From positions 1-38,092 of the forward strand of contig JAFGGO010000070.1 of the NCBI GenBank assembly GCA_016930515.1: a stretch of 38,092 nucleotides of DNA, written 5' to 3'. The notes below the pieces were generated by a model that did no database searches, was not told where the DNA came from, and saw only the letters and a program-made list of their open reading frames with translations. A program made the translations under genes and the position numbers. The stretch comes from Promethearchaeota archaeon (GTDB lineage Archaea; Asgardarchaeota; Lokiarchaeia; Sigyniarchaeales; SOKP01). Below, piece by piece: positions 411 to 12,642 of the stretch. Each line of letters starts with the position of its first letter. The first letter of the stretch is position 1.

Positions 411-2366
411 GTGTCTGAAAATCAGACCAACGAAAAAGAGATGATCGGAGTTTTCGTGTGTCGCTGAGGAATTAACATCGCAGGTATATTAGATGTTCCT
501 TATATCGTGAGTGAACTAAACAAATTACCAAGCGTAAAAGCTTTTGAATATTTGAGCATGTGTACCGAGGGTGGTTCGTCTTACATCAAGGAACAAATCG
601 TGGAACATAAACTATCGAAAATAGTCGTTGCGGCATGTACACCAAAAACGCACCAACCAGTATTTCACGCCATATTAAGCGAAGCGGGTTTACCTCCTCG
701 ATATCTGGAGTTTGTAAACATCAGGGAACATTGTAGTTTTGTCCATCAACAGGATAGAGAGCGGGCTAACGCCAAGGCAATAGAGCTCATTAGAGCGGGA
801 TTGGCTCGCGCTCGCCTCTTGGAGGACGTTCCGACAAAGATTGTTCCAGTAAAGCCAGAGGCGCTCGTGATTGGAGGGGGTATCGCCGGATTAAGCGCAG
901 CAATTGATCTAGGAGACGCTGGTTATAAGGTTTATCTTGTAGAAAAGAACACGACTATCGGGGGGAGAATGTCGCAATTAGACCGAACATTCCCCACGGA
1001 CGATTGTTCTATATGAATTCTTGGACCAAAAATGCTCGAAGCGAATCGACATCAAAACATAAATATCATGACATATAGCGAGGTTGTTAAAGTAGACGGC
1101 TATATCGGGAATTTTAAAGTGCAAGTCAAGAGGAATGCGCGATTTGTGGACGAGGATAAATGCACTGGATGTGGAACGTGCACTGATCGATGTCCAATTT
1201 ACGTGCCAAACTATTTCGACGAAAATTTATCGGCCAGAAAAGTAATAGACATTGCTTTTGCTCAAGCCGTTCCTGCAGTTCGAGACATCGTAAGAGAATC
1301 GTGCGTCGAGTGTTTTGCGTGCGTTGATTCTTGCGATCAAGAAGCCATCGATTTTAGTCAGAGAGATAAAATAGTCGAATTAGAAGTTGGTACCATCATC
1401 GTTGCAACAGGATGGGACATATACCAAGGAGACGATTACGGATACGGAACCTACGAGAATGTGATAAACCAAATACAACTCGAAAGAATTATCGCACCAA
1501 ACGGGCCAACCCTAGGTCATTTAAAACGACCATCCGATAGGAAGCGTCCAACCAGGATATTATTTATAAATTGCGTTGGATCGAGAGATGTGAGCAAAAA
1601 TCCCTATTGTAGTGTTGTATGCTGTAACTTATCGCTAAAAAATTCTAAACTCATAAAATCCGAATATCCTGATTCCGAGATCGTATGTTCGTACATCGAC
1701 ATGAGATGCGCGGGTAAGGATTACGAGGAATATTATAGGAGATCCCGGGATAAGGGCATTCTTTTCATTAAAGGCTTGGTTGGAAGCATCAAGGAAGATC
1801 CGGTGACAAAAAATCTCATCGTCCAACTCGAACCCGTAGGAACTGATACCGTCGTGGAAATGGAGTTTGACATGGTAGTCCTGTCGTCAGCCTCTCTACC
1901 GTCCGAAGGTACCATGGAGATCGCCAAGGTCATGAACATGGAAAAGAGTCCCGACGGATTTTTAAAAGAATTCCACGCAAGACTGGACCCAATTAGTACA
2001 AAGGTTCCAGGAATATATCTAGCCGGTTCAGCACAAGGTCAAAAAACCATTGAATTAGCCGTGAGCCAAGCGAAAGGCGCAGCTTCAACGGCGGGCATCC
2101 CAATGGGAAAAGGAGAGTACATCATGGAACTCATTCGAGCTACACCACTCGACGAACGATGTGCTAAATGCTACAAGTGTATTGATGCGTGTCCTTATAG
2201 TGCCATTTCCGTAAACGAGACTGGCAATTTAGTAGTTGATATTATTCGATGCCGTGGATGCGGAACGTGCGCAAGCTTGTGTCCTTCCAAGGCTATTGAG
2301 TTGACCTATTTCAGGGACGAACAATATGTTGCCTTATTAGACGAAATGCTTCCAATTGAAGAATAA
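411..2366 (+). CDS. hdrA: Heterodisulfide reductase subunit A-like flavoprotein, selenoprotein (651 aa; Sec19 and Sec202)
   Basis: GTG at 411 (AGGTGG upstream) opens MSENQTNEKEMIGVFVCR-UGA(465-467)-GINIAG, matching the HdrA GVFVCxCGxNIAG motif. The frame continues through ORF 507-1016 to TFPTDDCSI-UGA(1014-1016)-ILGPKM (HdrA TFPTxDCxxCIL) and into ORF 1032-2366. Also GGGIAG FAD motif, inserted ferredoxin, CVGSRD, YCSVVCC and C-terminal ferredoxin. Confidence 0.95.
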
Positions 2367-2382
2367 AGAGACGAGAATTAAA

Positions 2383-2823
2383 ATGGAAATAGACGACATT
2401 AAAATTATCGCGTTCTTGTGCTGGAAATGAGGATATGGTTCGGCAGACATGGCTGGTACGATTCGCGCTCAATATCCAACATCAATTCGCACAGTATTAG
2501 TGCCTTGTACGGGAAGAATAGGTGTCGATCTTGTCATGCGAGCCTTTGGAAGAGGTGCGGATGGCGTGTTAATTGTTGGTTGATACCCAAAAGAGTGCGA
2601 TTACGAGAATGGGAATTATTTCGCTTACCGACAAGTGGAATACATTAAAGAAGTGCTTAATTATTCTGGAATTGACGGTAGACGAATATCAATGAGCTAT
2701 TGCACTGCCGCAGAAGGTCAAAAGTTCCAACAAGAAGCGATAAAATTCGATAAACAAATCAACGAATTAGGACCCAGTCCGATTCGAATTAAAAGCGACG
2801 CGAAAACCAAAGCGAAAGCTTAA
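2383..2823 (+). CDS. mvhD: MvhD/VhuD/FlpD-type [2Fe-2S] subunit, selenoprotein (146 aa; Sec16 and Sec67)
   Basis: ATG 2383: MEIDDIKIIAFLCWK-UGA(2428-2430)-GYGSADMAG...VPCTGRI...GADGVLIVG-UGA(2581-2583)-YPKECDYENGN...LGPSP. Both UGAs replace the conserved Cys of MvhD motifs CxxCxYxxAD and GCxxGxCHY. The ORF track only shows the 2635-2823 tail. Confidence 0.95.
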
Positions 2824-2827
2824 ACAA

Positions 2828-2899
2828 ATGTGTTATCTAATGACGCTAGGTTAAAAATTTGAGAATCTAGCCGAAGAAATGGTTGCCCCATTAACACAT
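2828..2899 (+). promoter_or_regulatory. Eukaryote-like (Lokiarchaeal-type) SECIS element in the 3' UTR of hdrA-mvhD
   Basis: Helix I ATGTGTTA (2828-2835)/TAACACAT (2892-2899); core AUGA (2840-2843)...GA (2873-2874); helix II GCTAGGTT/AATCTAGC (8 bp); 11-nt loop AAAAATTTGAG. Starts 4 nt after the mvhD stop. Confidence 0.9.
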
Positions 2900-4276: not shown

Positions 4277-4711
4277 ATGGACGAATATCATCAAAAAAAA
4301 ATTATCCTTATATTTTCAGTCATTAACTTAATTTTAATCGTAATTAATATCGTTTCAGGATTTTTACCTCATTATCAAGAAGAAACAGCAGAGCTGCCAA
4401 TAAATGTAATATTTATTGTTATCGGGTTCATTTTACTAATAACATGTAGCACGAGATTGACATGCATTAAAAATAAAATCGATACCGTACAATCATTCAT
4501 TATTTGGGACATTATTATTAGTGTTCATGGCGGGACTTTTTTTATCATGGAAACTTTTATACATTTATTTAATGAATATAATTTCCAAGGAATTTTATCT
4601 TATAGTGGTTTTGTAATTGGTGCTATTTCAATGTGGCTTGTTTTATTGACAAATATCATTACACTCATCTTATATAAAAATTTAAAAAAAATTATAAAAA
4701 ATATATTGTAG
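4277..4711 (+). CDS. Hypothetical membrane protein (~4 TM)
   Basis: 144-aa ORF with four hydrophobic segments and a basic C-terminus; purine-rich RBS-like sequence upstream. Confidence 0.6.
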   Translation: MDEYHQKKIILIFSVINLILIVINIVSGFLPHYQEETAELPINVIFIVIGFILLITCSTRLTCIKNKIDTVQSFIIWDIIISVHGGTFFIMETFIHLFNEYNFQGILSYSGFVIGAISMWLVLLTNIITLILYKNLKKIIKNIL

Positions 4712-4927
4712 AACTCTGGCTCGAATTAAACATTTTAAAGAGTTTTTAAAATAATAATTTTAGTAAAGAAACCTATAAAAAAAGTTTTTGAAAACTTCAG
4801 ATATAATGGTTTACCTACAGATAAATAAAATTGTCAAATTAGAAAAAAAAAGGTAATCAAATTCCTTAAATACCCGTCCATTCTCTTTTAACACAAGAAA
4901 GAACATAAAAATGAGGTGTAGCTGAAG

Positions 4928-5518
4928 TTGGAGGTACTGAACGCAAAAAAAACCATAAGAAAAACGATGTCGATATATCTCGTAAATTATAATAACGAAA
5001 ATCCAAAAATCAAGGATGTTGAAGATGTTCTCAAGTATTTTAACGATAAAACGATAAACTTTGCCACTGTGGACGTCCCAGACGACTTTCTCATATCTTT
5101 TAGGAATTCTCCTCTCCCTGGATTATTGCGATCGCTTGGGATCTCCTATTACCAGATTAAGATTCCTGAAGAAACAAAAACCTTCTTTTTAGAAAAATTA
5201 AGAAAGATAGAAAAGCACCTTACGCAGGATCAGGAAGAATTCGCCCTTTTGGAAGATAAAAACAGCGCAAGGGGCAGATATCTTAAATTTTGGATCGAAT
5301 TATATCAAAAAGAACTCCAAGAAAACAAGGAGTTTTTCGAACAGAAGGTTCGACCCGTGTATATTGCTGAGACGATGATAGGAATGATCGAGGGAATGAT
5401 GGATCAAAATATCTTGCTCCTTCACTTCGGAGATGAAAAAACTTTCAGCGAGATCATGAAAGTAATAAAATACATTAACGAAAAAATCGACGTGTCTTAC
5501 TTGCATTACATCGTTTAG
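4928..5518 (+). CDS. Hypothetical protein with central coiled-coil
   Basis: 196-aa ORF, TTG start after GAGGTG, T-rich tract after the stop; no recognised motif. Confidence 0.6.
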   Translation: MEVLNAKKTIRKTMSIYLVNYNNENPKIKDVEDVLKYFNDKTINFATVDVPDDFLISFRNSPLPGLLRSLGISYYQIKIPEETKTFFLEKLRKIEKHLTQDQEEFALLEDKNSARGRYLKFWIELYQKELQENKEFFEQKVRPVYIAETMIGMIEGMMDQNILLLHFGDEKTFSEIMKVIKYINEKIDVSYLHYIV

Positions 5519-10185: not shown

Positions 10186-10511
10186 AATATTTTTTTTATT
10201 TTATTTTTATCTATCTATTTATTGAATAATTCTCTTTTGTTAAGTCTGGTTTTAAACATATATTCTTCATAAATCATCACGGATTGCATAGAGGTAAATA
10301 AATAATGATTGATTTATCAGTTATTTTTTTTGATAATTTTTTTTGTCAAGAATGACAAGCGAACTTATCATCATCGTTTATGAGATTTGCGGAATTGCCC
10401 TTTTGGAATATTTTATGAGCGAGCATTTAAATACGACGAATCATTATTAAGATCATAAACCCATAAAAAATTTTGAGGGTATTAGAAAAAAAAATAAAAG
10501 TTGATAATGCA

Positions 10512-12452
10512 TTGGTTGTAGATACAGGAGAAATTAGTCGAATATTTGTTGCTATTTGTCAATGAGGACTTAACATTGCCGAAACAATAGATTGTAAGGC
10601 GTTAACGGAATATTCTAAAAAGTTACCTGGCGTGGTTGGTTGCGACAATTATATTAGTCTTTGTACTACTGCGGGATCAACTTTCATTCGAGAAAACATG
10701 GCTTTTAATAACGCCAATCGCTTGGTAGTAGCTGCTTGAACGCCAAAAACCCACGAACCCGTTTTTAAAAAGATATTAAGCGATGCGGGGATTAATCATT
10801 CGTATTTAGAGTTCGTCAATATTAGAGAGCATTCGTCTTTCGTTCACAGGGGAGATAAGAGTGGTGCTCTCAATGTAGCAAAAGATCTCATCAAGGCTTC
10901 AGTCGCACGGGCCGCAGACCTCGAAAAGATTGATATAAAAAGCGTTGATTTGGACAAGAAAGTCCTTGTAATAGGCGCTGGCGTGGCAGGACTTTCTGCT
11001 GCTATTGATTTGACTGAACAAGGGTACGAAACATATGTCGTGGAAGAAAGACCCAGTATTGGAGGTATAATGGCAAAGCTCGATAGAACCTTTCCAACCG
11101 ACGATTGTAGTATCTGAATTTTAGGCCCCGTCATGCTTAAAGTAGCGAGCATTCCAAACGTGCATTTGTACACATATACAAACATTGAAGATATTTCGGG
11201 ATTTATTGGAAATTTCAAGGTAAAGCTGAGGAGAAAGGCGCGATTTGTTACGGAGGATTGCAACGGGTGCGGAGCGTGCGTTGAGGCTTGTCCCGCCTAT
11301 GGGTTTGATGAGTTTAACGAAAACATGAACTCACGAAAAGCAATCTACACGTATTTTGCCCAAGCAGTACCCTCAATTGCACAAATTGACATGGATCGAT
11401 GTATTCAATGTGGGATTTGCGAGGACGTTTGCGAATTAAACGCCATTGATTTCGATCAGAAAGATACAATAGAAAGTTTAACGGTTGGTTCGATAATTGT
11501 TGCAACGGGGCTTGATGTGCATAAGGGCAAGGAATACGGCAGGGGAACATATAGTAATATCTTAACGCAACTCGAATTAGAAAGAATCTTGGCACCAAAT
11601 GGACCCACTAAGGGACATCTCGTACGACCTTCCGATGGAAAGCGACCAAAAAAAATTCTATTTGTCAATTGCGCGGGTTCGAGAGATAAAAAAACACATT
11701 TTTATTGTAGCGTGGTATGTTGTAATCTCTCCATTAAAAACTCAAAATTAATAAAATCAGAATATCCCGATACAGAAATAGTTGTTAGTTTTATAGACAT
11801 GAGATGCGCTGGAAAAGATTACGAAGAATACTATCGAATGGCGAGGGATAGTGGAATTGTATTTGTTCGTGGACATGTAGGTAAAATAAAAGAGGACCCA
11901 AAAACGAAAGATCTCATCGTGCAAATTGAAGCCTTTGGAATGGACAGATTCTTGGAAATGGAATTCGACCTGATCATCTTATCGTCGGCATCTATTCCAC
12001 CAAAATCAGCAAAGAAGGTCGAAAAAATGCTTGGATTAGAAACAAGCAGGGACGGATTCTTTAAGGAGGCACACTCCCGATTGAACTTGATAGACACCAA
12101 GATCCCTGGTATTAGCATAGCAGGTGCTTCTCAAGGACCCAAGACAATTCCCGACGCTATCACTCAAGGAAGGGCAGCAGCATCCTCGTTAACGAGCATT
12201 TTACACAAGGATAAATACGAAATCCTTTTAATTAGAGGACACATCGAAAAAGATGCATGTGCGAGGTGTGGACTATGTGCACTGAATTGTCCATATAATG
12301 CCATAATAACAACCAAGAGCGGTCTCGAAGTGAACGAGATACTCTGCAGGGGATGCGGTACTTGTTTGGCAAATTGTCCTTCCGAAGCGATCACTTTAAA
12401 ATATTATCCAGAATCTCAATACGAAAAACAAATCGACGCGATTTTAAGCTAA
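10512..12452 (+). CDS. hdrA: Second HdrA-like flavoprotein, selenoprotein with three Sec (646 aa from TTG 10512; alternative TTG 10473)
   Basis: One frame: RIFVAICQ-UGA(10563-10565)-GLNIAE...LVVAA-UGA(10737-10739)-TPKTHEP...GAGVAG...TFPTDDCSI-UGA(11115-11117)-ILGPVM joining ORF 11133-12452; no other stops; colinear with hdrA-1. Start codon uncertain. Confidence 0.93.
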
Positions 12453-12528
12453 TTCGCATAAAAAAGGCAATGATTGCCGTTTGTTTGCTTTTTTAAATAT
12501 TTTGTCCTCATTCAACCAATTAAGACCA

Positions 12529-12598
12529 AACCCGATAGGATGATTCGAACGAAAAAATGATAGTCGTTTGGAGACTCACCCTCGCAAGGGATCGGGTT
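12529..12598 (+). promoter_or_regulatory. Eukaryote-like SECIS element in the 3' UTR of hdrA-2
   Basis: Helix I AACCCGAT (12529-12536)/ATCGGGTT (12591-12598); AUGA (12540-12543)...GA (12573-12574); helix II TCGAACGA/TCGTTTGG (8 bp with 2 GU); 11-nt loop AAAAATGATAG; followed by a T-rich terminator-like tract. Confidence 0.9.
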
Positions 12599-12642
12599 AT
12601 TTTTTATTTTTTTAAGGATTAAGGAAAAAAAGATAATAAAAT

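Follow-up and report, generated by a model that had tools for sequence, protein, structure and literature searches.

The core of a eukaryotic SECIS element is a quartet of non-Watson-Crick pairs set in an open internal loop; it has no third helix, and its reader is SBP2. The closest described signal in Asgard archaea is the lokiSECIS. Its definition runs from an AUGA through a stem of 9 bp, capped by a loop of 11 nt that opens with five A's and closes with (A)G, to a GA, with AA as a variant (Mariotti et al. 2016, PMC4989117). Its stem is shorter than the eukaryotic one, and a single SECIS is common to the hdrA-vhuD pair (PMC4989117). The lokiSECIS corresponds to the Asgard type I eSECIS-like structure of Huang, Xiao and Zhang 2024 (PMC11227280). 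SBP2 was not found in Asgard archaea (PMC4989117, PMC11227280). Two RNA motifs are relevant to the core of these signals: the standard kink-turn, laid out as C-stem, 3-nt bulge and NC helix (PMC5061560), and the k-junction, where the T helix follows directly after A1n and the loop nucleotides L1/L1.1 pair with connecting nucleotides (Wang et al. 2014, PMC4005666; Li et al. 2023, PMC10573300).

We describe two SECIS elements in 38,092 nucleotides of DNA from a Promethearchaeota archaeon (contig JAFGGO010000070.1); this whole stretch is called the window. We think it likely that both are Loki-type SECIS elements for the UGA codons upstream of them, each built as a three-way junction in which a canonical kink-turn is joined by a conserved third arm that would aid folding or recognition. 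The published descriptions available to us lack this three-way layout, in which a third arm stands beside a canonical kink-turn. The fixed core geometry and the short helix II are already known from the published lokiSECIS definition and are no new finding.

The two elements and their host genes

The window carries two copies of hdrA and an mvhD/vhuD gene:

441..2366, + strand: hdrA copy 1 (start uncertain; frame open from 309)
2383..2823, + strand: mvhD/vhuD (stop UAA 2821-2823)
10473..12452, + strand: hdrA copy 2 (start uncertain; stop 12450-12452)

Translation places in-frame UGA (Sec) codons at 465-467 and 1014-1016 in hdrA copy 1, at 2428-2430 and 2581-2583 in mvhD/vhuD, and at 10563-10565, 10737-10739 and 11115-11117 in hdrA copy 2. 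The models for HdrA, VhuD/FlpD and (elsewhere in the genome) SelD align in single stretches through the UGA codons. Against NF040770, hdrA copy 1 gives a single unbroken HdrA match spanning both UGA codons (E 2e-224, residues 46-681), and hdrA copy 2 matches in one stretch (E 2e-219, residues 23-658). The product of mvhD/vhuD matches PF02662 FlpD (E 2e-42) and NF045873 VhuD (E 4.5e-43). The second UGA of hdrA2, at 10737-10739 (VVAA-U-TPKTHEP), corresponds in the alignment to a Cys codon of hdrA1 (VVAA-C-TPKTHQP): the two paralogues in the same window display a Sec/Cys difference at the VVAA motif. A search for related loci with the MvhD alignment, in which Sec was back-translated as Cys, returned Cys homologues only, mostly bacterial.

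Element 1 starts 5 nt past the mvhD stop; the stretch from hdrA1 to mvhD contains no further element. For element 2 the distance from the hdrA2 stop is 77 nt. At 12461-12496, in the interval between that stop and element 2, GGCAAU and AUUGCC pair into a hairpin of 6 bp, and a T-rich run comes next; transcript ends at this hairpin, if any, would leave SECIS element 2 off. The parts of element 1 are as follows:

2828..2899, + strand: SECIS element 1, the whole three-way junction, common to hdrA1 and mvhD (core model 42.5 bits)
2828-2835/2892-2899, + strand: helix I, 8 Watson-Crick pairs, in the minimum free energy (MFE) fold
2836-2838 (UCU)/2875-2877 (AGA), + strand: C-stem of the predicted kink-turn
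2839-2841, + strand: bulge A-A-U, followed by G-A 2842-2843 opposite G2873-A2874
2840-2843, + strand: AUGA
2845-2852/2864-2871, + strand: helix II, 8 bp, one G.U
2853-2863, + strand: apical loop, 11 nt, AAAAAUUUGAG
2873-2874, + strand: GA of the tandem sheared pairs
2878-2892, + strand: side hairpin AAUGG-UUGCC-CCAUU, in the MFE fold

The N.N position next to helix II of element 1 is a C.C mismatch. Within its side hairpin, the stem is formed by 2879-2882/2888-2891 and the loop UUGCC by 2883-2887, with A2878-U2892 as an optional further pair. Element 2 has the same parts:

12529..12598, + strand: SECIS element 2, the whole three-way junction (core model 46.5 bits)
12529-12536/12591-12598, + strand: helix I, 8 Watson-Crick pairs
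A12537-G12538/C12575-U12576, + strand: C-stem
12539-12541, + strand: bulge G-A-U, followed by G-A 12542-12543
12540-12543, + strand: AUGA
12545-12552/12564-12571, plus U12544-A12572, + strand: helix II, two G.U
12553-12563, + strand: apical loop, 11 nt, AAAAAUGAUAG
12573-12574, + strand: GA; after the C-stem comes a 2-nt linker C-A, up to 12578
12579-12590, + strand: side hairpin CCCU-CGCA-AGGG, in the MFE fold

The 3' strand of helix I in element 2 directly abuts the side hairpin, with zero linker.

A preliminary description of this DNA had assigned both elements one architecture: an 8-bp helix I, AUGA-N, an 8-bp helix II, an 11-nt AAAAAU-nnn-AG loop, and N-GA. Every base of it checks, and the spacing of 33 nt from the A of AUGA to the G of GA is identical in the two. 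Folding adds to this picture. For the + strand of each element, the MFE structure from RNAfold is the three-way fold (z -2.05 for element 1 and -2.17 for element 2), and the extra hairpins at 2878-2892 and 12579-12590 are confirmed within these folds. The reverse strands fold more weakly (z only -1.24 and -1.51), and the G.U pairs of helix II are possible on the + strand only. One detail of the preliminary description has to be redrawn: the hairpin that it placed in an internal loop is there, but the loop is not open. Its strands pair (2836-2838/2875-2877 in element 1; 12537-12538/12575-12576 in element 2), so the arm sits at a true three-way junction.

Both elements share with the lokiSECIS an AUGA directly before the stem and a GA directly after it, a stem of 9 bp when the N.N position is counted, 11-nt loops of the AAAAA..(A)G form (AAAAAUUUGAG and AAAAAUGAUAG), and a location just past a selenoprotein coding sequence; element 1 serves a tandem hdrA-vhuD. 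With the published lokiSECIS features present and genes with in-frame UGA upstream, the eukaryote-like Asgard SECIS identity first proposed for them is borne out. Both are predicted Sec-insertion signals of the published Loki-type, a label that follows from the match to the lokiSECIS together with the Asgard relatives of MvhD. Scanned against Rfam with E values up to 10 allowed, the window matched no SECIS family and gave chance matches only; Asgard elements are likewise unmatched by curated eukaryotic SECIS models (PMC4989117). In common with eukaryotic type I SECIS elements, the two have a 3' UTR site, an AUGA/GA sheared-pair core, unpaired apical A's and a helix I below the core. Unlike them, they have a shorter helix II of 8-9 bp and a 3-nt-bulge kink-turn on a three-way junction.

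The published text on the lokiSECIS covers core, stem and loop, whereas the elements here add three features: a conserved third hairpin whose loop carries G-Y, covariation in helix I, and a -1b.-1n pair that is never missing. The comparison with the published lokiSECIS, which the preliminary description had named as a check on novelty, thus divides: core geometry and short helix II were known, and the arm is absent from the published accounts available. No side hairpin or junction is described for Asgard SECIS elements in the main text of Mariotti 2016 or in the available portions of Huang et al. 2024, Sun et al. 2021 and a 2026 review, and a full-text literature search for SECIS with 'three-way junction' gave no description of the arm.

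The side hairpin in this genome, its family and other Asgard archaea

To follow the arm beyond the window, we built a covariance model (R1) from the 35-nt core alone, with the arm left out. R1 finds six sites at 42-49 bits in the 4.0-Mb genome; the next best hit scores 23.7 bits. All six sit 3' of genes with in-frame UGA. Three follow hdrA-mvhD pairs and one follows the lone hdrA2; the other two lie behind selD and behind an unannotated ORF in which UGA occurs three times. When flanks are included in the folds, 6/6 elements form helix I and a 4-5-bp hairpin directly after the GA, and the stem sequences are all different.

Two of these loci deserve comment in their own right. The selD gene (locus L001, contig C18, 1112-2131) has Sec at residue 18 and a SECIS at 2155-2189. 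This SECIS is type I, with an 11-nt loop and a side hairpin; published descriptions give type II as the usual SECIS form for Asgard selD. At locus L002 (contig C43), tandem paralogous ORFs of ~150 aa (4408-4862 and 4955-5425) carry clustered in-frame UGA codons and the motifs A-U-G-U-U-G and C-U-U. A comparison of the two UGA-rich ORFs with Pfam gave no family. The first ORF terminates at the UGA within the AUGA of its own type I SECIS, and behind the second, at about 5432-5470, comes an AUGA..GA element whose helix II is atypical. We regard the tandem ORFs as candidate new selenoproteins.

R1 matches are present in 133/135 genomes of the source genome's family. In a 151-genome sample of the phylum, R1 matched all 25 sampled source-family genomes and 1/125 others: within this sample, and bar that single case, only the source family has the strict Loki core (8+1 bp, 11-nt AAAAAU loop). 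The comparative set comprised 119 distinct elements from the source family, selected on the core alone. The core A, U, G and A are invariant or nearly so in the 119, and helix II, which served as a positive control, is 95% paired with two-sided changes at 9/9 pairs.

A rival reading is that the side hairpins of both elements are chance folds of G+C-richer 3' flanks. Their single-sequence folds are only ~2 sd better than shuffles, and 4-bp hairpins occur in 62-67% of shuffled flanks. The comparative data refute this reading, to which we give next to no probability. A hairpin of at least 4 bp within the first 32 nt after the GA is found in 115/119 elements, compared with 67% of dinucleotide shuffles. 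Stricter features give an arm stem score of at least 10 in 88% of elements vs 25% of shuffles, a G-pyrimidine in the arm loop in 92% vs 28%, and a side hairpin together with a helix I of at least 5 bp in 79% vs 18%. Covariation, position and loop are conserved over the 119 elements and five further families.

Covariation was scored on A3, a sequence-only MAFFT alignment of the 119 elements. The A3 consensus 3' of the core reads GA-C-U-N-ACCYY-(loop with GC)-RRGGU, and the helix I strand comes next. Across the six arm pairs in A3, 78% of cells are paired, and double changes are seen at 6/6 pairs (98 double-change cells vs 37.5). Arm covariation is 0.373 vs 0.174±0.015 in shuffled alignments (0/500), a contrast whose significance is overstated because the 119 elements are mutually related; the slid controls, which preserve this relatedness, give at most 0.232 and still favour the arm. 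Helix I covariation is 0.442 vs 0.185 shuffled (0/500). RNAalifold, run de novo on the 119-sequence A3, predicted helix II alone and did not recover the arm, so support for the arm comes from counts for a structure that we specified and from single-sequence folds. The same result may explain why consensus-folding studies missed the arm.

Element 1 is informative in this respect. The side hairpin of element 2 conforms to the family consensus ACCY..GC..RGG, whereas the arm stem of element 1 is a sequence outlier, its polarity flipped (AUGG/CCAU vs the consensus ACCY/RGGU). Despite an entirely different stem, hairpin, position and loop GC are all retained, contrary to what chance folds would give, which makes the predicted element 1 arm a strong compensatory case. 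In the MAFFT alignment, L002, L079, L084, L086 and L113 behave in the same flipped-stem manner. On these comparative grounds, the predicted side hairpin is a genuine, conserved and covarying feature.

A conserved hairpin could nevertheless be a 3'-end element, acting in stability, termination or processing merely beside the SECIS and outside Sec decoding. Both hairpins do lie at the extreme 3' end of their transcription units, just before T-runs (2906-2911, downstream of the helix I 3' strand of element 1, and 12600-12615, downstream of element 2), and a few SECIS elements have the hairpin but lack helix I. Archaeal termination, however, needs oligo-T and no hairpin. Helix I also encloses the hairpin in about 79% of elements, the distance from C-stem to hairpin is fixed at 0-4 nt, the G-Y of its loop is conserved, and the hairpin is found only alongside SECIS cores, where it is kept over gene families and Asgard families alike. 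We consider a 3'-end element highly unlikely and take the hairpin as part of the SECIS. The elements with a hairpin and no helix I are those at L043, L048, L114 and L129, which have A-rich flanks and no detectable helix I partner and keep a side hairpin of the ACCCC-GCAA-GGGU type. The three-way junction is thus not universal, and the arm is kept more strictly than the closing helix.

To look outside the source family, we turned to MvhD. Six-frame searches of the phylum sample recovered, in families f2, f8, f13, f16, f19 and f20, homologues that carry two in-frame UGA codons. We took the 3' flanks of 20 loci: 18 Sec-mvhD loci of these six families and two f7 homologues that have one in-frame UGA each. 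We surveyed them for the arm by eye and with RNAfold, a procedure that covers a small and heterogeneous set. Of the 18 Sec-mvhD flanks, 17 have AUGA-helix II-GA, C-U-N, a CCCCY..RGGGG hairpin and a helix I partner; most of the 17 arm loops contain G-pyrimidine, usually GC. Unconstrained RNAfold places a closing helix around two hairpins in 13/17, and in f19 additionally gives a GUAG/CUAC C-stem flush with the arm. The f20 locus (L152) has no SECIS within its 350-nt 3' flank, nor do the two f7 homologues (L150, L151) within theirs. The other families differ from the source family in the sizes of helix II and loop and have the same arm.

The preliminary description had suggested that the arm may be lineage-specific. 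Its recurrence 3' of Sec-mvhD in five other Asgard families overturns this view: as a predicted structure, the arm is Asgard-wide in the lineages sampled. Whether other Asgard SECIS elements have the side hairpin had been set as a check in the preliminary description, and the answer is positive, from 115/119 family elements and 17/18 flanks of other families, with covariation within the family.

The core as a predicted kink-turn at the junction

The strands flanking AUGA and GA carry a second conserved feature. The -1b.-1n pair, which joins the nucleotide two before AUGA to the nucleotide after GA, is formed in 119/119 elements (GC 112, AU 5, UA 1, GU 1). A C follows the GA in 112/119 (94%), a G stands two before AUGA in 113/119, and 7/7 departures are compensatory or wobble. 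The second (-2) pair of this C-stem is formed in 74% of the 119 elements and the third in 48%. Exactly three nucleotides, N-A-U, are left unpaired before the tandem G.A/A.G. Element 1 again departs from the family consensus in a consistent way: relative to UAG/CUA, its -1 pair changes from G-C to U-A and its -2 pair from A-U to C-G, both compensatory, and the -3 pair is unchanged as U-A. Given the always-formed -1b.-1n pair and the 3-nt N-A-U bulge, we read the core as a canonical kink-turn with a 3-nt bulge, whose short C-stem runs up to the junction. Where arm, C-stem and helix I come together, 0-2 nucleotides stay unpaired, the arm beginning about 0-4 nt after the C-stem.

Judged by conservation and covariation, the core resembles standard kink-turns of the L7Ae class, such as Kt-7: a Watson-Crick C-stem, a 3-nt bulge, G.A plus A.G, and an NC helix. 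Unlike the Kt-7 class, it has a C-stem of just 2-3 bp that leads into a junction. A likeness to k-junctions, specifically those of the TPP riboswitch and DUF-3268, is also apparent in the tandem G.A/A.G and the third helix on the non-bulged strand, a topology compared by secondary structure only. The core could then be a k-junction, folding with metal ions and excluding L7Ae. The third helix belongs to the non-bulged (3') strand and borders directly on helix I, an arrangement that would permit C/T-like coaxial stacking (PMC4005666, PMC10573300), and Asgard archaea lack SBP2. Yet between A1n and the arm stands the -1b.-1n Watson-Crick pair (119/119), usually plus a second, and the bulge stays at 3 nt. 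We therefore find a k-junction improbable.

In terms of class membership, the 2-3-bp C-stem separates the arm from the 1n/-1n step and the bulge is a standard 3-nt one, unlike the k-junction. Strict membership was rejected on the -1b.-1n pair between A1n and the arm, and this conserved C-stem is the ground for classing the core as a simple kink-turn beside a three-way junction.

Further observations concern the C-stem and its surroundings. In the VhuD SECIS of Methanococcales and Methanopyrus, as the text of Mariotti 2016 describes its figure 4B, the C after the GA corresponds to the conserved -1n nucleotide here; there, a euryarchaeal SECIS with the GAA_A bulge forms the main stem, and no side hairpin is mentioned. 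A derivation of the euryarchaeal GAA_A SECIS from helix I and the side arm was considered and dropped: in Methanococcales VhuD the euryarchaeal stem is flanked by AUGA and GAC, in the place that helix II takes. The other two hdrA-mvhD operons of this genome (L003, 1902-1918, contig C46; L004, 1511-1527, contig C75) use the mvhD stop UAG as the 5' strand of the C-stem, and the UAG stop codon doubles in this way in many mvhD elements. Where the stop lies inside the C-stem, a terminating ribosome must unfold the SECIS.

Recognition of the Asgard signal and what it means

We propose that both elements cause the 2-3 in-frame UGA codons that precede them to be decoded as Sec. The junction would have three parts. 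The first is the closing helix I. The second is the arm with the 2-3-bp C-stem, the N-A-U bulge, the tandem G.A/A.G, the 8(+1)-bp helix II and the 11-nt A-rich loop. The third is a 4-7-bp hairpin with a conserved G-pyrimidine loop, abutting helix I. The C-stem is too short alone, and we infer from this that the junction holds the kink-turn in its folded geometry; it would do so with the C-stem stacked on either helix I or the arm. The loop of the arm may serve as a second contact point for the SECIS reader that replaces SBP2.

Candidate readers are L7Ae or L30e on the kink-turn, or the archaeal EFSec. This genome has two L7Ae-family genes only, and an extra L7Ae-domain paralogue as SBP2 substitute was rejected on that count. 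With no SBP2 in Asgard archaea and just these two genes, the reader is likely a general kink-turn protein, EFSec, or an unidentified factor. A bolder version of the proposal divides recognition in two: L7Ae or L30e would clamp the kink-turn, and the arm would recruit EFSec or an adaptor. The ancestor of the eukaryotic SECIS would then have been the three-way junction and not a two-helix, eukaryote-like hairpin, and eukaryotes would have lost the arm as extra domains of SBP2 took over its role. We offer this version as speculation and rate it as rather doubtful.

The likely reading, that of a Loki-type SECIS with a kink-turn and a third arm at a three-way junction, has practical consequences. 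Adding the arm and the kink-turn to covariance models should raise the sensitivity of searches for Asgard selenoprotein genes. The third arm, with its near-invariant loop dinucleotide, and the kink-turn, whose closing pair is formed in every element, provide concrete targets for mutation, and bait. The finding bears on how archaea recognize a SECIS and on the origin of the eukaryotic SECIS-SBP2 system, for which Asgard elements are the proposed intermediate.
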